From assembly GCA_964021805.1 (NCBI GenBank), contig CAXHZP010000008.1, positions 917-64,916 on the forward strand: a DNA stretch of 64,000 bases. The letters are read 5' to 3'. Below the pieces are notes generated by a model, which did not search any database, was not told the DNA's origin, and saw nothing but the letters and a program-made list of their open reading frames with translations. The position numbers and the translations under genes were made by a program. Source of the DNA: an uncultured Flavobacterium sp. (GTDB lineage Bacteria; Bacteroidota; Bacteroidia; Flavobacteriales; Flavobacteriaceae). How positions within the stretch are numbered: the first letter of the stretch is position 1; each line of letters starts with the position of its first letter. Positions 16,516-27,358 of the stretch are shown one piece after another.

Positions 16516-18096
16516 ATGATGAATATACCAGATCAATATCAAATCAAGAAAACAATTTCTCAAAACACCTATTTAGTTGATGGTGTTTTAAAAACTTGGA
16601 CAGGTGAGACAGCAGATGTGTACTCCACTATTTCCTCAACAGATACATATAAGCCAACATTATTGGGCTCTATTCCTCAGTTAGGTGAAGAGCAAGCAAA
16701 TGAAGCGTTGAATTCTGCTTGTAATGCTTTTGATAGAGGAAAAGGACTTTGGCCAACAATGAAAGTTGTCGACAGAATTGCCTGTATGGACAAGTTTGTG
16801 GCTCAAATGAAAACCAAACGAGAGGAAATTGTTAACCTATTAATGTGGGAAATTGGAAAAACACTCCCAGATTCACAGAAAGAATTTGATAGAACCATAG
16901 ATTACATTTATGATACTATTGAAGCTTATAAACAAATGGATAGAGACAGCGCAAAGTTTAAAAAAAATAGCGGTGTCAATGCTCACATTAGAAGAGGACC
17001 TTTAGGAGTAGTTTTGTGTCTAGGACCTTATAACTATCCATTAAATGAAACTTTTTGTTTGTTGATTCCTGCACTAATTATGGGAAATACAGCAATTTTT
17101 AAGCCTGCCAAATTTGGGGTATTATTAATTTCACCTTTAATGGAAGCATTTCAGAATAGTTTTCCAAAAGGTGTGGTAAATATTATTTATGGTAGAGGTA
17201 GAACCTTGGCTACTCCTATTATGAAATCAGGTAAAATAGATGTTTTAGCTTTAATTGGACATAGTTCATCAGCAAAATCTTTACAAACTCAACACCCAAA
17301 AGTTAATAGATTGCGTTTAGTTTTAGGTCTTGAAGCAAAAAACCCCGCAATTATATTACCAGATGCAGATTTAGATGTGGCTATAGAAGAGTGTATAGCA
17401 GGATCTTTGTCATTTAACGGACAACGCTGTACAGCTTTAAAAGTATTATATGTTCATGAAGATATTGTTGAAAAATTTAACAAGCTATTTTCTGCACGAG
17501 TTGATGAGTTGTCATTTGGAAACCCATGGGAGCCTGGAGTTAAATTAACTCCTTTACCTGAACCAAATAAACCTGCATACATTCAAGGATTGATAGATGA
17601 TGCTAAGAAACACGGTGCCACTATTTTAAATGCTAAAGGTGGTGAAACTTTAGATAATTATATATTTCCAGCTGTTTTATATCCAGTTAATAAGCAAATG
17701 GAAGTATTTCATGAAGAGCAATTTGGTCCTGTAGTTCCTATAATTTCTTTTAAAGATATTAATGAACCTTTAAATGATATTGCAGATTCTAATTATGGAC
17801 AACAAGTTAGTTTATTTGGAAAGGATGTTCACACTTTATCTCCTTTAATAGATAGTTTGGTGAATCTAGTTTGTAGAGTAAACTTAAATAGTTCCTGCCA
17901 ACGTGGTCCAGATGTATATCCTTTTACAGGGAGAAAAGATTCTGCTGTGAGTACTTTAAGTGTTTACGATGCTTTACGTTCTTTTTCAATCCGTACTTTT
18001 GTTGCCTCTAAAGACAATCCTTACAATAATTCTATTCTTGAAGAATTACTAGAAAAGAAGACATCTAACTTTATAAGTACAGATTATATATTGTAG
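16516..18096 (+). CDS. gapN: Aldehyde dehydrogenase superfamily protein, probable NADP-dependent non-phosphorylating glyceraldehyde-3-phosphate dehydrogenase
   Basis: [19 protein letters not shown] catalytic Cys, EEQFGP, and [15 protein letters not shown] typical of GAPN-like enzymes. Confidence 0.8.
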
Positions 18097-18181
18097 AATA
18101 GTTATTTTTAATATGCCATTTTTGTATTTCTTTTAATTAAAAGTTTCTTATTTAAGAAATACATAAAACTTCAAAAAAATG

Positions 18182-18208
18182 ATTTTGGAACCATTGTTGT
18201 TCCAAAAT
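18182..18208. promoter_or_regulatory. Inverted repeat ATTTTGGAAC-N7-GTTCCAAAAT overlapping the arg promoter
   Basis: Perfect 10-bp arms straddling the putative -33 TTG; either an operator or a gapN 3' hairpin. Confidence 0.45.
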
Positions 18209-18223
18209 AATTTTGCATATTTG
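18194..18223 (+). promoter_or_regulatory. Putative arg operon promoter TTG-N19-CATATTTG
   Basis: Matches Flavobacteria -33/-7 spacing; ends 4 nt before the leader ATG. Confidence 0.6.
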
Positions 18224-18227
18224 AACG

Positions 18228-18296
18228 ATGTTAAGTCTAAAAAATAGTACATATATAGTTTCTAACGCAATGCCCAAGAGCTTGCGCCGCCGCTAA
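18228..18296 (+). CDS. Putative arginine-sensing leader peptide MLSLKNSTYIVSNAMPKSLRRR (22 aa)
   Basis: Manual translation. Its only Arg codons are CGC CGC CGC immediately before TAA; it lies directly upstream of the arg operon. Confidence 0.75.
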   Translation: MLSLKNSTYIVSNAMPKSLRRR

Positions 18297-18450
18297 TTCT
18301 TAAAATTAGCATACAACTATATTCACTATTTATTTTTAAACATTGTTCACTTCCCATTTCATATCATTTTTTTTATCTCCAGTTATTGTAAAAGATAACA
18401 AGACTTCTCCGCGTACTTTTTTTTCACGTCGCCCTTAGGGTGTATGCTAA
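18292..18450 (+). promoter_or_regulatory. Putative attenuator switch of the arg leader (alternative pairings around a rut-like tract)
   Basis: GCTAATT(18292-98) pairs with AATTAGC(18304-10), or TTAGCATACA(18306-15) pairs with TGTATGCTAA(18441-50). 18311-18380 has 15 C and 1 G. Confidence 0.55.
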
Positions 18451-18532
18451 ATTTTTGAACTCAGGTGAGTCCGGTTCTATTTTCTATCAAAACAGTTTAA
18501 AATAAAGTTTACAATCAATTCAAATTATCATT

Positions 18533-19174
18533 TTGGAAATTATTATTGCTAATAAATCGCATGCTATTTATGCAAAGATTATTTGTAAAACTATTGCTGA
18601 TTCTGCCAACGTAAGAGGAACAGGAATAGCAAAAAGAACTACAGATTACATCATTCAAAGAATGAATAATCAAAATGCTGTCATAGCACTTGATGAAGGT
18701 AATTTTGTAGGTTTTTGTTATATAGAAAAATGGGGGCATGGCAGGTTTGTAGCTAATTCAGGATTGATAGTGCATCCAGATTACAGAGGGAGAGGAATTG
18801 CTAAACTTATAAAAGAGAAGGTGTTTATTCACTCTCGATTAAAATTTCCAGAAGCTAAAGTATTTAGTATAACCACTGGATTGCCTGTCATGAAAATGAA
18901 TAGTGATCTAGGGTATAAGCCAGTAACATTTTCGGAGCTAACTAAAGATCAATCATTTTGGAATGGATGTCAAACCTGTAAAAATTATGATGTTTTACAG
19001 AGAACATCGCAAAGTATGTGTTTGTGTACTGGGATGCTTTATGATCCTCAAAAGGTAGAGGAACCATCGAAAAAAATATCAATAAAAGTCTTTAAGAGAT
19101 TAAAACAAATAAAGCAAGCACTCTTTTTAACAAAATCTTTTAAAAAGTTCACCAAATTAAAAAATGTAAAATGA
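18533..19174 (+). CDS. GNAT-family N-acyltransferase, probable Bacteroidota N-acyl(succinyl)glutamate synthase (ArgA function)
   Basis: RGTGIAKR, FVANSGLIVHPDYRGRGIA acyl-CoA motif, FWNGCQTC..CLC; first gene of the arg operon; TTG start. Confidence 0.8.
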   Translation: MEIIIANKSHAIYAKIICKTIADSANVRGTGIAKRTTDYIIQRMNNQNAVIALDEGNFVGFCYIEKWGHGRFVANSGLIVHPDYRGRGIAKLIKEKVFIHSRLKFPEAKVFSITTGLPVMKMNSDLGYKPVTFSELTKDQSFWNGCQTCKNYDVLQRTSQSMCLCTGMLYDPQKVEEPSKKISIKVFKRLKQIKQALFLTKSFKKFTKLKNVK

Positions 19175-19205
19175 ATCACCAACTACAAAAATTAAATTAA
19201 AAATT

Positions 19206-20390
19206 ATGAAAAAGAAACTTGTATTAGCATATAGTGGTGGATTAGATACGTCTTATTGTGCTGTTTATTTTTCTAAATATTTAGATTATGAAGTTCATGC
19301 TGTATCTGTAAACACAGGAGGTTTCACTGAATCAGAAATTGAAACCATAGCGGAGAAGGCTTATGCTATGGGCGTAAAAACATATCAAAATATCAATGCA
19401 GTTGAATCGTACTATCAGAAAGTGGTGAAATTCTTAATTTTTGGGAACGTTTTAAAAAACAATACCTATCCATTATCTGTAAGTGCCGAAAGAAGTATTC
19501 AAGCAGTAGAAATTATTAAATATGCTAAAAAAATAAATGCAGATTATGTAGCTCACGGAAGCACAGGTGCTGGTAATGATCAAGTTAGGTTTGATTTAAT
19601 TTTTCAAACACTAGCTCCTGAAATAAAAATTATTACTCCTATTAGAGACCAACATTTAACAAGACAAGAAGAAATTCAATTTTTAATAGCTAATGGAATA
19701 GAGTTGACTTGGTCTAAAGCCAAGTATTCAATTAATAAAGGGCTTTGGGGAACAAGTGTTGGAGGTCAGGAGACACTTACTTCTCATCTTCCTTTGCCTG
19801 AAGAAGCTTATCCATCACAGTTACAGAAAAAAGATGAACAACAAGTGCAATTAACTTTTTCTAAAGGAGAACTGATTTCAATTGATAACCAAGAAGGAAC
19901 GCCGCAAGATGTCATTGAAAAACTAAACAAACTAGCCTCTAAATATGCAATAGGAAGAGATATTCATGTAGGTGATACCATTTTAGGAATTAAAGGAAGG
20001 GTAGGTTTTGAGGCAGCAGCAGCTAATATTATAATTAAATCGCATCATTTGCTAGAAAAACATACCCTAACAAAATGGCAATTACAGCATAAAGAATACT
20101 TGTCTAATTGGTATGGGACTCATTTACATGAAGGATTATTTTTAGATCCAGTGATGAGAGATTTAGAATCTTTTTTAGAAAATAGTCAAACACAGGTTTC
20201 AGGTCATGTTTATGTGAGCTTAAAACCATATCATTTCACAATAGATGGTATAGCATCTGAAAATGATTTGATGGATACTGATTTTGGAACCTATGGCGAA
20301 GAAAATAAACGTTGGACAGCAGATGAAGCAAAAGGATTCATTAAAATATATGCAAATCAAAGTATAATCTTTCAAAATACACACAAATGA
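19206..20390 (+). CDS. argG: Argininosuccinate synthase
   Basis: LAYSGGLDTS, HGSTGAGNDQVRF, IKGRVGFEA. Confidence 0.97.
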   Translation: MKKKLVLAYSGGLDTSYCAVYFSKYLDYEVHAVSVNTGGFTESEIETIAEKAYAMGVKTYQNINAVESYYQKVVKFLIFGNVLKNNTYPLSVSAERSIQAVEIIKYAKKINADYVAHGSTGAGNDQVRFDLIFQTLAPEIKIITPIRDQHLTRQEEIQFLIANGIELTWSKAKYSINKGLWGTSVGGQETLTSHLPLPEEAYPSQLQKKDEQQVQLTFSKGELISIDNQEGTPQDVIEKLNKLASKYAIGRDIHVGDTILGIKGRVGFEAAAANIIIKSHHLLEKHTLTKWQLQHKEYLSNWYGTHLHEGLFLDPVMRDLESFLENSQTQVSGHVYVSLKPYHFTIDGIASENDLMDTDFGTYGEENKRWTADEAKGFIKIYANQSIIFQNTHK

Positions 20391-21364
20391 TACAAGCAGG
20401 AATAATTGGAGGAGCTGGGTATACAGCAGGTGAATTAATTAGAATTTTATTAAATCATAAAGAAGTTGCAATTAACTATATCTATAGTACCTCAAATGCT
20501 GGGAATAAAGTGAGTGCTATTCATCAGGATTTGGTAGGTGATACAGATTTAATTTTTTCTAGTAAAATTAATTCAAATGTTGATGTACTATTTTTATGCT
20601 TAGGACATGGAAATTCAAAAGATTTCTTAGTTAAGACAGCTATTTCATCATCTACAAAAGTTATTGATTTAAGCACAGATTTTAGGCTTAAAAATGATGC
20701 TATTTTTCAAGGAAGAGAATTCGTGTACGGGTTGCCGGAACTTCATAAAGAAAAAATTAAGAATGCTGATAATATTGCAAATCCAGGTTGCTTTGCTACT
20801 GCATTACAACTGGGTTTGTTACCTCTGGTATCTAATCATTTAATACATGATGATATTCATATAAATGCAGTGACTGGTGCAACTGGCGCTGGAACCTCAT
20901 TATCAAAAACTTCTCATTTTACATGGCGAGATAATAATTATTCTTACTATAAACCTTTTGATCATCAACATTTAAAAGAGATATATCAATCGGTAAAACA
21001 GTATCAAGATGAGTTCTCCTACGGCATTAATTTTATTCCAACTAGAGGTAATTTTTCCAGAGGAATTTATGCCACTATGTACACTCAATTTTTAGGGAGT
21101 TTAGAAGATGTGATTAGTGTTTATAATCAATTTTATAAAGATGCTGCTCTAACTTTTGTTACCCATCAAGAATTGCATTTAAAGCAAGTTGTTAATACTA
21201 GTAAATGCTTAATTCATATATCTAAGCATAAGAACAAATTACTAATAACTAGTTGTATAGATAACCTATTAAAAGGTGCGTCGGGTCAAGCAGTTCAAAA
21301 TATGAATTTAATGTTTGGATTTGATGAATCTGAGGGTTTGAAATTAAAAGGAACATATTTTTAA
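20387..21364 (+). CDS. argC: N-acyl-gamma-glutamyl-phosphate reductase
   Basis: GGAGYTAGEL, IANPGCFAT, DNLLKGASGQAVQNMN. Confidence 0.97.
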   Translation: MIQAGIIGGAGYTAGELIRILLNHKEVAINYIYSTSNAGNKVSAIHQDLVGDTDLIFSSKINSNVDVLFLCLGHGNSKDFLVKTAISSSTKVIDLSTDFRLKNDAIFQGREFVYGLPELHKEKIKNADNIANPGCFATALQLGLLPLVSNHLIHDDIHINAVTGATGAGTSLSKTSHFTWRDNNYSYYKPFDHQHLKEIYQSVKQYQDEFSYGINFIPTRGNFSRGIYATMYTQFLGSLEDVISVYNQFYKDAALTFVTHQELHLKQVVNTSKCLIHISKHKNKLLITSCIDNLLKGASGQAVQNMNLMFGFDESEGLKLKGTYF

Positions 21365-21376
21365 AATAAATAAATT

Positions 21377-22177
21377 ATGAAAATAGCAATCATAGGGACA
21401 GGTAATTTAGGGTGCTCTATAGCCACGGGGTTAATTACTCAAAATGCAATTACCTCATTGTATTTAACCAGAAGAAATTTAGAAAATATTAAAGAATATA
21501 AAGGGTATTCAAATGTCTTTTTGACTTCTGATAATAGAAAAGCAGTTAAAAACTCTGACATTTTAATTTTTGCTGTACAACCTGGACATTTAGAAGGAAT
21601 TTTAAATTCTATTAAAGATTTGCTCACAGAGAAGCATGTTATAATTTCTACAATTACTGGTTATTCTGTTTCAAAAATTGAAGATAGTATAGGTATAGAT
21701 AAGTATGTTGTAAGAGCCATGCCTAATACTGCCATAGCTGTAAGTAAATCTATGACTTGCTTGAGTAGTAATAAAAAAGGGGCAGAAAGAATTAAAATAG
21801 CTGAAGCTATTTTTAACAGGTTAGGTACATCGATAATTATTCCAGAAAATCAAATGCAAGCAGCCACGGTAATATGTGCTAGCGGAGTGGCTTTTTGGAT
21901 GCGATTAATTAGGGCAACAACTCAAGCTGCAATTCAGTTGGGGTTTGATGCGCATGAAGCACAAAAATTATCTATGTATACCTCTGAGGGAGCAGCACAA
22001 TTATTAATAGCAACTGGAAATCATCCAGAGGAAGAAATAGATAGGGTAACCACTCCTAATGGATGTACTATAGAAGGATTAAATGAAATGGAACACAAAG
22101 GCTTAAGCTCTTCTTTGATTCAGGGAATGGTAGCATCTTTTAATAAAATAAATAGTATTAAAACAGATCAAATATGA
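21377..22177 (+). CDS. proC: Pyrroline-5-carboxylate reductase
   Basis: GTGNLG, VRAMPNT, VTTPNGCTIEGL. Confidence 0.95.
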   Translation: MKIAIIGTGNLGCSIATGLITQNAITSLYLTRRNLENIKEYKGYSNVFLTSDNRKAVKNSDILIFAVQPGHLEGILNSIKDLLTEKHVIISTITGYSVSKIEDSIGIDKYVVRAMPNTAIAVSKSMTCLSSNKKGAERIKIAEAIFNRLGTSIIIPENQMQAATVICASGVAFWMRLIRATTQAAIQLGFDAHEAQKLSMYTSEGAAQLLIATGNHPEEEIDRVTTPNGCTIEGLNEMEHKGLSSSLIQGMVASFNKINSIKTDQI

Positions 22178-23301
22178 GTTTATTTAATGTATATCCGTTA
22201 TTTGACATCAGGCCTGATACAGCTAAAGATGTTTTTATTTATGATGAAGATGGAGTAGAGTATTTAGATCTATATGGAGGGCATGCCGTTATTTCTATTG
22301 GTCACTCTCATCCGAAATATGTTTACAATATTGCCAAACAAATTAATAAAATAGGATTTTATAGTAATTCTATACAAAATCCTTTGCAAAAAGAACTCGC
22401 TGAAGAACTGGTAGAGGCTTCAGGGTGCAATGATTATCAATTATTTTTGTGCAACTCGGGTGCAGAAGCGAATGAAAATGCATTAAAACTAGCATCTTTT
22501 CACACGAAGAAGAAGAAAGTTATTGCCTTTAAAAATGGTTTTCATGGAAGAACTTCAGCTGCAGTAGCAGTCACAGATAACTCCAAAATAATTGCACCAA
22601 TTAATGCACAACAAGAAAAAGAGCTATTTGATTTGGGAGATATTACTGGGGTAGAGAATGCATTAAGTAATAATGATGTTTGTGCGGTTATTATAGAATG
22701 CGTTCAAGGCGTAGGTGGATTAGATGAAAGTACAACGAGTTTTTATAAAAGGTTGTATCATCTATGTAAAAAATTTAATGTGGTACTCATTGCAGACGAA
22801 GTTCAATCTGGTTTTGGAAGAACTGGTGATTTTTTTGCGTTTCAAAAACATAAAATTATCCCTGATATTATATCCATGGCAAAAGGAATGGGTAATGGTT
22901 TTCCAATTGGCGGAATTTTAATTCATCCAAAAATAAAAGCTTCTTTTGGTCTATTGGGAACAACCTTTGGAGGAAATCATCTAGCCTGCATAGCTTCTTT
23001 AACAGTTCTGGAGGTAATCAAAGCAGAAAAACTTCAAGAAAATGCAAAGATGATTTTTGATTATTTTAAAAAGAAAAGCCAATCATTGCCTCATTTAAAA
23101 GCTGTAAAAGGGAGAGGGCTAATGCTGGGGTTAGAGTTTGATTTTCCTATATCAGAACTAAGAAAAAAACTTATCTACAAGCATCACATTTTTACAGGAA
23201 ATGCTAAGAACCCGAATGTGTTAAGAATTTTGCCATCTCTAACTATACAGAAGAAGCATGTAGACGTGTTTTTTACGGCTCTAAAAACAGAAGTATTATG
23301 A
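22174..23301 (+). CDS. argD: Acyl-ornithine aminotransferase (class III)
   Basis: NSGAEANENA, FHGRT, DEVQSGFGRTG, MAKGMGNG; arg operon context. Confidence 0.93.
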   Translation: MSLFNVYPLFDIRPDTAKDVFIYDEDGVEYLDLYGGHAVISIGHSHPKYVYNIAKQINKIGFYSNSIQNPLQKELAEELVEASGCNDYQLFLCNSGAEANENALKLASFHTKKKKVIAFKNGFHGRTSAAVAVTDNSKIIAPINAQQEKELFDLGDITGVENALSNNDVCAVIIECVQGVGGLDESTTSFYKRLYHLCKKFNVVLIADEVQSGFGRTGDFFAFQKHKIIPDIISMAKGMGNGFPIGGILIHPKIKASFGLLGTTFGGNHLACIASLTVLEVIKAEKLQENAKMIFDYFKKKSQSLPHLKAVKGRGLMLGLEFDFPISELRKKLIYKHHIFTGNAKNPNVLRILPSLTIQKKHVDVFFTALKTEVL

Positions 23302-24233
23302 AGAAATATTTAACAATTAATGATATAAAAAATATTGAGCATACTGTTCAAGAAGCTATTCAATTAAAAAACAATCCCTATCAATTTGAAAATTTAGGCA
23401 AGTATAAAACCTTGGTAATGCTTTTTTTTAATGCTAGCCTAAGAACTAGGCTAAGCACTGAAAAAGCTGCGAAGAGTCTTGGGATGGATGTGATGGTTCT
23501 AAATATTAATGATTGTTGGAATTTAGAGTATGACAATGGAACTATTATGAATCTTGCTAAAGCAGAGCATATTAAGGAAGCTGCTAATGTTATATCTCAA
23601 TATGGAGATATTATAGCTATTAGAGCATTTCCTACCCTTACAAACAAGGAAAAGGATGAAACAGAGCAGGTGCTTCATAGTTTTGTAAAATATGCTTCAG
23701 TACCAATTGTTAATATGGAAAGTGCTACGGCACACCCATTGCAGGCGCTTGCTGATGCTATTACTATTAGTGAATTTAAAACAACTTCAAAACCAAAAGT
23801 TGTCTTAACCTGGGCGCCTCATCCAAAAGCATTACCTCATGCTGTAGCGAACTCTTTTATTAAAATAATGAAAGAAATAGATGTAGATCTTTTGATTACG
23901 CATCCAAAACACTATGAATTAAATTCCAATATTACTCAAGATGTTCCTATAATCAATAACCAAGAAGAGGCTTTGAAAGATGCGGATTTTGTATATGCTA
24001 AAAATTGGAGTAATTATCATGATTACGGTAAAATTGTATCTGTAGATGAAAACTGGATGCTAACTAATGAGAAATTAGGAAATGCAAAGTTTATGCATTG
24101 TTTACCAGTAAGAAGAAATGTTGTTGTAGAAGATGCAGTTTTAGATGGTGAAAACTCGCTGGTGATTGAACAAGCAAATAATAGAACTTATGCGGCTCAA
24201 ATAGTGTTAAAAAATATTTTAAAAACATTGTAA
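23298..24233 (+). CDS. argF: N-acylornithine carbamoyltransferase (ArgF'), probably N-succinylornithine-specific
   Basis: SLRTR carbamoyl-phosphate motif, HPLQ, HPKALP, HCLPVRRN (AOTCase/SOTCase signature), KAEH at the specificity site. Confidence 0.9.
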   Translation: MKKYLTINDIKNIEHTVQEAIQLKNNPYQFENLGKYKTLVMLFFNASLRTRLSTEKAAKSLGMDVMVLNINDCWNLEYDNGTIMNLAKAEHIKEAANVISQYGDIIAIRAFPTLTNKEKDETEQVLHSFVKYASVPIVNMESATAHPLQALADAITISEFKTTSKPKVVLTWAPHPKALPHAVANSFIKIMKEIDVDLLITHPKHYELNSNITQDVPIINNQEEALKDADFVYAKNWSNYHDYGKIVSVDENWMLTNEKLGNAKFMHCLPVRRNVVVEDAVLDGENSLVIEQANNRTYAAQIVLKNILKTL

Positions 24234-25012
24234 TGAAAACACTAAAAGTTATAAAAATAGGCGGAAATATCATAAATAACGAGGTTAGTTTACTCTCTTT
24301 TTTAAAAGATTTTTCAAGTTTAAATGGACCAAAAATTTTAGTTCATGGAGGAGGTAAATTAGCTTCAGATTTATCTAACAAAATGAATATTCCAGTTCAA
24401 TTAATAGATGGAAGAAGGGTTACAGATGCAGAAACTTTAGACATTATAACCATGGTTTACGCCGGTAAAATAAACAAAAATATTGTAGCTAAACTACAAA
24501 GTTTTGGATGTAATTCTGTTGGGTTTTCTGGCGCAGACGGAAATACAATTATTGCTAATAAAAGACCTGAATCTCCAATAAATTATGGTTTTGTAGGAGA
24601 TGTAGTAAAGGTTAATATAAGTGTTATTAAAATATTGATAGACAATAATATAACAAATATTTTTTCTGCAATATCTCATAATGAAAAAGGACAATTGTTA
24701 AATACAAATGCAGATACTATTGCTTCCGAATTAGCGATTGCTTTTTCGAATGATTATAAAGTTGAATTGTATTATTGTTTTGAAAAAAAAGGGGTACTAC
24801 AGCGAACAAATGATGAAAACTCTGTGATTAAAGAAATAAATAATCAAACGTACATAGAATTAAAAAAATCTAACATAATTAATGAAGGCATGATTCCTAA
24901 ATTAGATAATTGTTTTTATGCGCTAAATCATAATGTTTCAAAAGTTTGTATAGGGCATCCTACCATGCTTTTTGATCATCATTCTAACTTTACAACCATT
25001 CAAAAATTATGA
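24233..25012 (+). CDS. argB: N-acylglutamate kinase
   Basis: VIKIGGN, VHGGG, LNTNAD, GMIPKL. Confidence 0.95.
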   Translation: MKTLKVIKIGGNIINNEVSLLSFLKDFSSLNGPKILVHGGGKLASDLSNKMNIPVQLIDGRRVTDAETLDIITMVYAGKINKNIVAKLQSFGCNSVGFSGADGNTIIANKRPESPINYGFVGDVVKVNISVIKILIDNNITNIFSAISHNEKGQLLNTNADTIASELAIAFSNDYKVELYYCFEKKGVLQRTNDENSVIKEINNQTYIELKKSNIINEGMIPKLDNCFYALNHNVSKVCIGHPTMLFDHHSNFTTIQKL

Positions 25013-26100
25013 GAAAAGAAAAATTAATTTTAGAGGCCATTTCACTATTAAAAAGTTTAATAAAAACACCTTCATTTTCTTCTGAAGAACATCATACAGC
25101 TTTGTTAATAGAATCTTGGTTTCAAGATTCTGATATCTCTTTCAATAGAACTAATAATAATATTTGGGCCATTAATAAATATTTTGATGAAACAAAGCCA
25201 ACCCTTTTGTTGAACTCTCATCATGATACTGTGAGACCTAATAATGGATACACCAAAGATCCTTTTGACCCAATTATTAATGCTGGTAAACTATACGGCC
25301 TTGGTAGTAATGATGCTGGAGGATGTTTGGTTTCTTTATTGGCAACATTTTCTTTTTTTTATCATCACAAGAATTTAAAATACAATTTGGTTATGGTAGC
25401 TTCAGCAGAGGAGGAAAGTAGTGGAGAAAATGGATTAAACAGCATGCTGTCTATTATACCTGAGATATCTGTAGCTATTATCGGAGAACCTACCTTGATG
25501 CAATTAGCCATTGCAGAAAAAGGATTGATAGTTTTTGATGCCAAAGTAATTGGTACCCCTGGACATGCTGCTCATAAAAATGATGATAATGCCATTTATA
25601 ATAGTATAGAAGTGCTAAAGTGGTTTCAGGAGTATACATTTGAAAAGCATTCGGAAAGCCTAGGAGATGTAAAAATGACAGTTACCCAAATACAGGCAGG
25701 TAAGCAACATAACGCCATCCCTTCTGAAGTAACTTTGGTGGTAGATGTTCGTGTAAATGATAGGTATTCAAATAAAGAAATTGCTGAGATTTTGGAAAAT
25801 GAATCTCCCTGTTCTACCATTGTTCCAAGGAGTTTACGATTAAACTCTTCCTCTATATCAGTTGAACATGACCTAATTAAAGCAGGTTTAGAATTGGGTA
25901 GAGAGACTTATGGATCTCCAACATTATCCGATCAATCTGTTTTAAGTTGTCCTTCTTTAAAATTGGGTCCTGGAGACAGTACGAGATCACATACCGCGGA
26001 TGAATTTATTTATTTGAAAGAAATTGAAGAGGGGATTACCCTTTATATTAAATTATTAGAAAAAACATTAATAGATACTAAAGATGAAGCTCTGGGATAA
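25009..26100 (+). CDS. argE: M20 family deacylase (ArgE-like; probable N-succinyl/acetyl-citrulline deacylase)
   Basis: NSHHDTV, GSNDAGG, AEEE, GEPT, HTADE; arg operon context. Confidence 0.85.
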   Translation: MRKEKLILEAISLLKSLIKTPSFSSEEHHTALLIESWFQDSDISFNRTNNNIWAINKYFDETKPTLLLNSHHDTVRPNNGYTKDPFDPIINAGKLYGLGSNDAGGCLVSLLATFSFFYHHKNLKYNLVMVASAEEESSGENGLNSMLSIIPEISVAIIGEPTLMQLAIAEKGLIVFDAKVIGTPGHAAHKNDDNAIYNSIEVLKWFQEYTFEKHSESLGDVKMTVTQIQAGKQHNAIPSEVTLVVDVRVNDRYSNKEIAEILENESPCSTIVPRSLRLNSSSISVEHDLIKAGLELGRETYGSPTLSDQSVLSCPSLKLGPGDSTRSHTADEFIYLKEIEEGITLYIKLLEKTLIDTKDEALG

Positions 26101-27358
26101 AGGAATAAAAATAGATGAAAAAATAGAACAGTTTACTGTTGGGAATGACAGGGAAATAGATATGCACATAGCAAAATATGATGTAAATGCTTCATTAGCA
26201 CATGCAAAAATGTTGTTTTCTATAGGTATTATAACAGCAATAGAACTTCAGCAATTAGAGAAAGGATTGTCAATTTTAGAAAAACAAATCCATGAAGGAA
26301 CATTTGTTATTGAATCTCAATTTGAAGATGTACATTCAAAAATAGAATTTGAATTAATCAACATGTTTGGAGAGGTTGGTAAAAAAATTCATACAGCACG
26401 GTCTAGAAATGATCAAGTATTGGTTGCTTTGCAGTTGTACTATAAAGATCAATTACAAACAATAAAAGGGCTAGTGGGTACTTTTTTTGATACATTGTTA
26501 AACCTTGCAGAACTTCATAAAAAATGCTTATTACCAGGGTATACACACCTTCAAGTAGCTATGCCATCTTCATTTGGGTTATGGTTTTCTTCCTATGCAG
26601 AGGTAATTGTAGATGATGTATATCTTCTAGATGCTGCTATTAAAACAATAGACCAAAATCCACTTGGTTCTGCGGCAGGTTATGGAAGTTCATTTCCAAT
26701 AGATAGAAATTTTACAACTACAGAACTTGGTTTTGGTGCACTTAAGTACAATGTTATAGCTGCACAAATGGGAAGGGGTAAAAATGAAAGAACAATTGCA
26801 GCTGCATTGGGAGGTATTTCAAACACTTTATCTAGGTTTTCAATGGATATTTGTTTGTATATGAGTCAGAATTTTGACTTTATTACTTTTCCAGATTCAT
26901 TAGTCACAGGAAGTAGTATCATGCCACATAAAAAAAATCCTGATGTATTTGAATTAATAAGAGGAAAGTCAAATAAAATTCAAGCTTTGCAGATAGAAAT
27001 GACTTTAATTACAAATAATCTTCCGAGTGGCTATCACAGAGATTTTCAACTTCTCAAGGAAAATATGATTAATTTAATTGAGGAAATGAAAACCATTTTA
27101 GAAATTTTCAATTATTCGATACAGCAAATAAAAGTGAAGAAGATAGATTTTTTAGATGATAAATATAAGTATTTAAGTACAGTAGATTCTATCAATAATT
27201 TAGTGATGAAAGGACTTTCTTTTAGAGAGGCATATCAACAAATAGGGGCTTCAGTAACAAACCGAACTTACGAGTATACGGTTGGAAAAGAACACACCCA
27301 CATTGGTAGTATTCATAATTTATGTCTAAATGATATTAGAAAAAAATTTCCTAAATAG
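26084..27358 (+). CDS. argH: Argininosuccinate lyase
   Basis: KLWDKG, HTARSRNDQ, PGYTHLQ, GSSIMPHKKNPD. Confidence 0.97.
   Translation: MKLWDKGIKIDEKIEQFTVGNDREIDMHIAKYDVNASLAHAKMLFSIGIITAIELQQLEKGLSILEKQIHEGTFVIESQFEDVHSKIEFELINMFGEVGKKIHTARSRNDQVLVALQLYYKDQLQTIKGLVGTFFDTLLNLAELHKKCLLPGYTHLQVAMPSSFGLWFSSYAEVIVDDVYLLDAAIKTIDQNPLGSAAGYGSSFPIDRNFTTTELGFGALKYNVIAAQMGRGKNERTIAAALGGISNTLSRFSMDICLYMSQNFDFITFPDSLVTGSSIMPHKKNPDVFELIRGKSNKIQALQIEMTLITNNLPSGYHRDFQLLKENMINLIEEMKTILEIFNYSIQQIKVKKIDFLDDKYKYLSTVDSINNLVMKGLSFREAYQQIGASVTNRTYEYTVGKEHTHIGSIHNLCLNDIRKKFPK

Follow-up and report, generated by a model that had tools for sequence, protein, structure and literature searches.

The classical leader-peptide attenuators, namely trpL, hisL, pheL, leuL, thrL and ilvL, are those of Proteobacteria. 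Leader peptides have also been reported in Flavobacterium psychrophilum, where they precede ilvE and hisG (PMC9723704), and a survey of attenuators does not mention arginine (PMC2965389). The sensing of arginine limitation by ribosome pausing at rare Arg codons of a leader peptide has been shown experimentally for rbfL from Staphylococcus aureus (PMC13009471). In that case, the leader acts on a biofilm regulator, the ribosome binding site of which it occludes to control translation, and expression decreases when arginine is scarce (PMC13009471). A literature search, with most subscription journals outside its reach, found no description of an Arg leader for a bacterial arg operon. The initial annotation of the present locus had considered such a mechanism to be undescribed.

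The locus described here is found in a stretch of 64,000 nt (hereafter the window) that belongs to a 2.09 Mb assembly representing a genome 87.7% complete. Its arg operon is preceded by a 305-nt leader that contains two Arg-ended reading frames, uORF1 and uORF2. The following sections address the organization of this leader, its conservation within and outside Flavobacteriaceae, the mechanism by which it might sense arginine and its relationship to described systems.

The leader and its operon

All the features described below are carried by the forward strand. The operon itself (18533–27358) comprises nine genes, as had initially been counted, which encode a GNAT protein, ArgG, ArgC, ProC, ArgD, an acyl-ornithine transcarbamylase (argF'), ArgB, an ArgE-like M20 deacylase and ArgH. 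The GNAT gene that heads it has a TTG start at 18533, and relatives carry an ATG at the homologous codon (ATGGAAAT...). As proC, which encodes pyrroline-5-carboxylate reductase (21377–22177), is located within the operon, between argC and argD, an Arg-sensing leader would control a gene of the proline pathway too.

Directly upstream of the leader, and after two other co-oriented genes, lies a gene encoding a 526-aa aldehyde dehydrogenase (ALDH; 16516–18096). A perfect 10-bp inverted repeat, ATTTTGGAAC-N7-GTTCCAAAAT (18182–18208), is found 86 nt past this gene, where it extends into the −33 region of the promoter of the leader. This palindrome, which is upstream of the promoter, is the sole detection of a consensus terminator scan of the leader region; it was not seen in same-genus loci and is probably the terminator of the ALDH gene. 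RNA-library contigs of two studies start just 5' of it (at 18165 and 18177).

The promoter proposed in the initial annotation, based on the box CATATTTG (18216–18223), appears reasonable, since this box overlaps a perfect Bacteroidetes-type −7 box, TAATTTTG (18208–18215), both being read directly within a −7 region that spans 18208–18223. In relatives, a TAGTTTTA or TACATTTG box is located 4–7 nt 5' of the uORF ATG. As the ATG is located only a few nt from the expected transcript start, the 5' UTR of uORF1 is predicted to be very short or absent.

The first frame, uORF1 (18228–18296), could be read directly as first described: it carries 22 codons (MLSLKNSTYIVSNAMPKSLRRR*) starting with the ATG at 18228, and its CGC CGC CGC run (18285–18293) immediately precedes the TAA (18294–18296), 236 nt before the first gene of the operon. 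An internal ATG (18270), which had been put forward as an alternative start leading to MPKSLRRR, is not conserved in relatives. The CGC run is indeed as atypical as had been suspected. CGC represents a single one of the 121 Arg codons of 12 neighbouring genes (AGA 79, AGG 17, CGT 14, CGA 8, CGG 2), and (CGY)3 is found at just 3 loci of the whole 2.09 Mb assembly (both strands, any frame). Furthermore, RRR occurs within the last five residues of 10 of the 24,245 short ATG ORFs of the genome, uORF1 alone having it spelled CGC×3. A tRNA-Arg(ACG) gene is present in this genome.

The initial annotation, although correct about uORF1, had seen only half of the leader element, since it missed a second frame ending RRP* (uORF2, 18343–18438) as well as two hairpins, B and C. 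In the window, uORF2 is devoid of ATG; a TTG start, inferred from position alone, would give 31 codons. It ends ...PRTFFSRRP*, with CGT CGC at 18427–18432, CCT at 18433–18435 and TAG at 18436–18438. As in attenuators, the Arg codons of the leader are clustered, as CGC×3 in uORF1 and as CGT CGC in uORF2.

The whole leader folds better than shuffled sequences (z = −2.6). In the MFE fold, a long-range helix, P1, closes a three-way domain that includes a hairpin M, the Arg codons of uORF1 and a hairpin S. The 5' arm of P1 (18226–18260) spans the AUG and codons 2–11 of uORF1, and its 3' arm (18315–18345) ends in a U-rich run (18333–18338) and reaches the TTG of uORF2 (18343–18345). Within the domain, hairpin M (18267–18285) lies directly 5' of the Arg codons, and hairpin S (GCUAAUU / AAUUAGC, 18292–18310) has a 5' arm that includes the stop codon of uORF1 and the last nt of its final Arg codon. 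Equivalents of hairpin M were recognized by eye in relatives, where the stop codon is likewise carried, also by eye, by the 5' arm of a hairpin of other sequence. A further predicted hairpin (GUUAUU / GAUAAC, 18382–18399) is located in the middle of uORF2, and a hairpin of different sequence was found by eye at the same place in relatives. Hairpin B (CGCCC-UUA-GGGUG, 18430–18442) follows, its 5' arm corresponding to the last Arg codon and the Pro codon of uORF2 and the TAG straddling its loop and 3' arm. Hairpin C (GAACUCAGG-UGAGU-CCGGUUC, 18457–18477), located 14 nt after hairpin B, carries the apex AGGUGAGUCC and is supported by covariation (see below). It is followed by a U-rich tail (18478–18488; UAUUUUCUAUC, with UAUUUUCU following C), which could be an intrinsic-terminator tract in the window's genome only. 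When 17900–18800 was compared with Rfam 15 by cmscan (E ≤ 10), the sole match was a spurious snoRNA one within the upstream gene; no T-box matched the leader.

The leader was found in contigs of four metatranscriptome studies, at a low depth that shows its presence in RNA libraries only. These contigs cover 18177–18416, 18165–18469, 18258–18428 together with 18453–18763, and 18041–18933, the last one originating from a 97%-identical strain. This strain keeps all the Arg codons and displays one synonymous change (CGT>CGA). The starts at 18165–18177, upstream of the predicted promoter, are those of assembled contigs and not read ends; likewise, pieces end between 18416 and 18469 at positions that vary from run to run, and genuine 3' ends cannot be deduced from contigs.

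Conservation in Flavobacteriaceae and other Bacteroidia

The GNAT protein was used as a query against 60 family genomes, each representing a different genus; 40 genomes, including that of the window, encode this protein, and the upstream DNA of 39 Flavobacteriaceae loci was retrieved. Any ATG-initiated frame of 8–50 codons with RR in the last five residues was counted as an Arg-ended uORF. The initial annotation had proposed to look for an Arg-rich uORF in relatives, and such a uORF was found upstream of the operon at 34 of the 39 loci, against 1/39 for the reverse complement and a mean of 0.78 (maximum 4) for shuffled sequences, although these counts overstate independence, the sampled genomes being relatives. 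As in attenuators, a short ORF with its start codon is therefore conserved in the 5' leader of a biosynthetic operon. The runs found in the uORFs of relatives include 2–5 Arg.

Two classes of leaders were distinguished. Class 1, to which the window belongs, displays a uORF1 of 21–24 codons ending in RRR, RRRF, RRC, RRS or similar, followed by P1. Its second frame, which ends (I/V/F)F(P/S)RRP-stop, is open over at least 30 codons in all class-1 relatives; most class-1 loci carry an in-frame GTG or TTG 30–31 codons before the stop of this frame, and some carry an ATG nine codons before it. Class 2 has a single ATG uORF of 26–27 codons that starts 7 nt after a TACATTTG box, occupies the same place as uORF2 and combines a variable N-terminus with the tail F-x-P-x-RRRP-stop. 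According to these comparisons, uORF1 is an extra upstream stage found in a subset of loci, and uORF2 together with hairpins B and C is the more widely conserved part of the element.

The uORF1 peptides are barely alignable even between loci of the same genus (for example, MHTSNKTNQISLRRRRPMRRR and MISNKNKIRFTAFSSFIRLQRRC). Therefore, what is conserved in uORF1 is the ATG start, the length of 21–24 codons and the terminal Arg run. The Arg codons of Flavobacteriaceae leaders differ from each other at the wobble position only (CGU/CGC), as predicted by a coding constraint. The P1 helix is also retained: in most class-1 loci, the duplex energy of P1 departs from that of shuffled sequences by z scores of −2 to −5, and its arms differ in sequence yet stay complementary across several genera (loci L001, L003, L013 and L014). 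In relatives, the region of its 3' arm reads ACGUAAUUUUAAUUUUUUU, then CAUA-GUG.

Hairpin B, as the RNA core CGY-CGC-CCG-UAA-GGGUG, and hairpin C are common to the sampled loci, except those of one genus (g62). In most relatives, the loop of hairpin B is GUAA or GUGA and includes the stop codon. In an alignment of 42 sequences, 98.2% of the cells of both hairpins are paired and 8 of the 12 pairs show compensatory change; none of 500 shuffles reaches this result, and slid controls collapse. Taken separately, hairpin B has 100% of its cells paired and displays in 2 sequences a compensatory GCAC/GUGC change, which replaces Pro by Thr. Hairpin C has 97% of its cells paired, with compensatory changes in 7 of 8 pairs, and its apex AGGUGAGUCC is nearly invariant across the family. 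A covariance model, R1, was built on both hairpins. Its sole match in the window's genome is the expected one (18421–18482, 59.4 bits). Globally, R1 gives one match per genome, always at the arg operon, and in a sample of 150 genomes of the order it matches Flavobacteriaceae only. The B and C motif is a clean annotation marker for arg operons in marine Flavobacteriaceae.

Genus g62 (loci L047–L050), a large one within the family, carries the GNAT-argG operon behind a different leader, with a uORF (for example, MNKISLHITSLSRTISPGTSPEVRMLSI) that includes two separate in-frame CGG codons and with a hairpin GUACUUC-UCCC-GAAGUAC. Model R1 matches none of its 9 genomes, i.e. the B/C motif was not found in this genus.

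The survey was extended to about 30 other Bacteroidia families, represented by 40 upstream regions. Many of these regions carry a uORF of 35–70 codons ending in ...(V)PFFPRR, FFSRRA, LFPRRRSA or similar; those with 40–70 codon uORFs ending ...PFFPRR-stop, which have a sister-like form of the element, include L055, L067, L069, L071, L082, L085–L087 and L089. In these families, Arg codons vary among AGA, CGA, AGG and CGC, the terminal pair being AGA, CGA or AGG followed by CGC or CGT. Such a varied spelling indicates that the identity of the residue is conserved, and not the nucleotides. In these leaders, the first hairpin is formed by the Arg codons (GACGC) and GCGUC, with the stop in its loop. 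The loop of the second one, CC-UACGC-GG, is a repeat of the codon segment that could pair with the 3' arm of the first (GCGU). From its sequence, this hairpin pair resembles a sister form of the element in which the classical 1:2 / 2:3 / 3:4 layout is more evident; with a ribosome stalled on the Arg codons, segment 2 would become available for invasion of the second hairpin. No U-tract follows the second hairpin in any of these other-family leaders, a C-rich, G-poor sequence being found there instead.

The initial annotation had also suggested that the uORF be compared with the presence of argR, and this link holds. PF01316 and PF02863 have no match in the window's genome (87.7% complete), and PF01316 was detected in 0 of 61 Flavobacteriaceae genomes (55 of high quality), the control from Bacteroides thetaiotaomicron being positive. 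Across the class, just 8 of the 201 Bacteroidia genomes sampled have PF01316, and four of these 8 carry the corresponding gene directly upstream of the GNAT gene of the arg operon. The Arg-codon leader is widespread in Flavobacteriaceae, a major marine family, and probably so across the class Bacteroidia.

Proposed mechanism and alternative readings

It seems fairly probable that ribosome stalling at Arg codons controls the arg operon and that the leader acts as a two-stage arginine sensor read by ribosomes, which would replace ArgR, absent from these bacteria. In the first stage, a ribosome translating uORF1, at or beside the 5' end of the transcript, would have to read three nearly unused CGC codons with tRNA-Arg(ACG); P1 would sequester the uORF1 AUG and end at the start of uORF2. 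The second stage would take place at the Arg-Arg-Pro-stop end of uORF2, whose last Arg and Pro codons would build hairpin B, with hairpin C coming next. If charged tRNA-Arg is plentiful, ribosomes would finish and leave, P1, B and C would fold and few transcripts or ribosomes would reach the GNAT-argG operon. If it is scarce, ribosomes would stall on the Arg codons and keep the helices open, and expression would increase. The spacing is compatible with this scheme: a ribosome with its A site on the first Arg codon of uORF2 and a footprint extending about 12 nt downstream would cover the 5' arm of B and leave GGGUG free, whereas one with its A site on the stop codon would cover GGGUG too.

The initial annotation had already proposed stalling on Arg codons, which conservation supports as the probable mechanism. 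No clean terminator/antiterminator pair emerged. Indeed, folding of 39 leaders with the ribosome footprint held single-stranded did not reveal any convincing antiterminator in Flavobacteriaceae. Under these constraints, hairpin C stays in most leaders in all three situations, i.e. with no ribosome, with a ribosome on the Arg codons or with one on the stop. As no consistent change of C was observed across the 39 leaders, the proposal that this hairpin is a regulated terminator was dropped. Furthermore, most relatives lack a U-tract after hairpin C, which therefore differs from a canonical terminator; neither hairpin C nor the P1 U-run was detected by the consensus terminator scan. The apex of C resembles segment 2 rather than segment 1. 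In a thermodynamic model, one stalled ribosome changes the stage-1 domain from −24.9 to about −11 kcal/mol and P1 stays, whereas a queue of two ribosomes removes P1. The candidate output steps are intrinsic termination at the P1 U-run, or at hairpin C and its U-rich tail in the window's genome, Rho-dependent termination on the C-rich tract and a factor that would read the invariant apex of C.

Two other proposals concerning hairpin C were discarded. A pseudoknot between UCGCC of the Arg codons and GGUGA of the C loop, with 5–7 bp in several class-2 leaders, is unsupported: in L015 and L036, the apex of C changed in a way that keeps the intra-hairpin pair, and no change of the partner was seen. 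[quoted passage not shown]

Codon sensing alone explains neither the invariant apex of C nor the F-x-P-x-RRRP tail. The conserved Phe/Pro tail suggests, from the sequences compared, that the nascent chain contributes, for example by slowing peptide-bond formation before the Arg codons.

According to another reading, which we regard as unlikely, hairpins B and C would form a riboswitch-like or protein-operated RNA domain, to which a small ligand or a protein would bind, the reading frames being secondary or serving as an expression platform. Over the 42 sequences, there is almost no variation in the apex AGGUGAGUCC of C or in the GUAA loop of B while the stems covary, as is observed for motifs that bind ligands or proteins, and the motif is absent from Rfam. 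GUAA tetraloops dock on tandem C-G pairs, and hairpin C may offer such tandem pairs as a dock; moreover, C forms regardless of the position of the ribosome in most folds. However, the 5' side of hairpin B is a series of in-frame CGY codons whose variation is limited to the wobble position, and in class 2 an ATG frame of fixed length always leads into this hairpin. The Arg run of uORF1 exists without any B/C motif, and no candidate binding protein was identified. The other families keep an Arg-ended uORF although the loop of their second hairpin is different; the feature in common is therefore this ORF rather than the RNA sequence.

A direct sensing of arginine by the conserved tail together with the invariant B-C RNA domain, either as a bacterial counterpart of the fungal arginine attenuator peptide (AAP), the nascent chain sensing free arginine within the ribosome, or as an arginine-responsive RNA fold acting jointly with the terminating ribosome, appears quite unlikely, but it would, if true, make the leader more than a plain hunger-codon attenuator.

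The tail also underlies an arrest-peptide model comparable to AAP, TnaC or SpeFL, in our view improbable, in which the nascent chain senses free arginine, arrests the ribosome at the Pro-stop of uORF2 and thereby sets the fate of the downstream RNA. The C-terminal tails are kept at the amino-acid level with synonymous codons (Phe UUU/UUC; Pro CCU/CCC/CCG) and read F-x-P-x-R-R-R-P-stop in class 2, F-P/S-R-R-P-stop in class 1 and P-F-F-P-R-R-stop in other families. A C-terminal Pro before the stop is a slow-termination context, and TnaC ends ...RP-stop; uORF2 offers the same context. Hairpin C has no U-tract and is followed by a C-rich, G-poor sequence that could serve Rho. Nevertheless, uORF1 of the window has no Pro before its stop (RRR-stop) and encodes a peptide that lacks conservation even within the genus, the N-terminal two thirds of all the uORFs vary freely, and an arrest at the stop codon gives the same structure as normal termination in the folds tried. 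In addition, a biosynthetic operon would need the arrest to switch expression off, for which no route is visible, and the choice of codons that this genome rarely uses speaks in favour of tRNA sensing.

Lastly, it is very improbable that the Arg-ended frames are chance ORFs, with Arg codons that would merely result from a GC-rich structural island in a long structured 5' UTR devoid of amino-acid specificity. The genome does provide 24,245 short ORFs, and Arg, Pro, Ala or Gly codons are readily generated by G+C-rich stems within A+T-rich DNA. However, relatives keep the strand, the frame and the start codon, as well as the Arg run in spite of sequence divergence; two separate Arg-ended frames are found in one leader and the element is specific to the arg operon.

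Relationship to known systems

The conserved Arg-codon leader provides a concrete, testable answer to the question of how Flavobacteriia, and apparently most Bacteroidia, regulate arginine synthesis. Repression by ArgR/AhrC and Arg T-box leaders fulfil the same physiological task, i.e. feedback on arg genes. The leader of the window differs from the former in that no ArgR was found in its genome or in 61 genomes of the family, and from the latter in that there is no Rfam match.

In contrast to rbfL, the target is here the arg biosynthetic operon, about 95 nt (from uORF2) to 236 nt (from uORF1) downstream, and arginine scarcity is expected to raise expression. As for AAP (the uORF of fungal arg-2/CPA1), TnaC and SpeFL, short uORFs with conserved C-terminal residues are located upstream of amino-acid or polyamine genes, and, as in TnaC, the uORF2 of relatives ends with Pro-stop. 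However, in the AAP, TnaC and SpeFL peptides, which sense a free metabolite, conservation extends over much of the sequence, whereas here conservation is restricted to the last 6–9 residues, with a run of cognate codons.

The classical attenuators share several features with this leader: a short ORF rich in codons for the amino acid made by the operon itself, regulatory codons and a stop included in a hairpin, additional hairpins before the first gene and, like the Trp codon pair of trpL, Arg codons located 2–4 codons before the stop. The leader differs from them by the lack of any clear terminator/antiterminator alternative in the folds of Flavobacteriaceae, by a long-range helix that closes the first ORF, by a second hairpin that has an invariant apex and usually no U-tract, by two Arg-ended frames in series, the first at or beside the 5' end of the transcript, and by arginine itself. 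It may illustrate an attenuation devoid of canonical terminator, with serial sensing frames, a stop codon at or in the loop of hairpin B (GNRA in most relatives) and a conserved second hairpin unlike a canonical terminator. The leader would add arginine to the amino acids under leader-peptide sensing, and it would do so in a phylum whose setting is unlike that of the model systems, with translation initiated without Shine-Dalgarno use and with different promoters.
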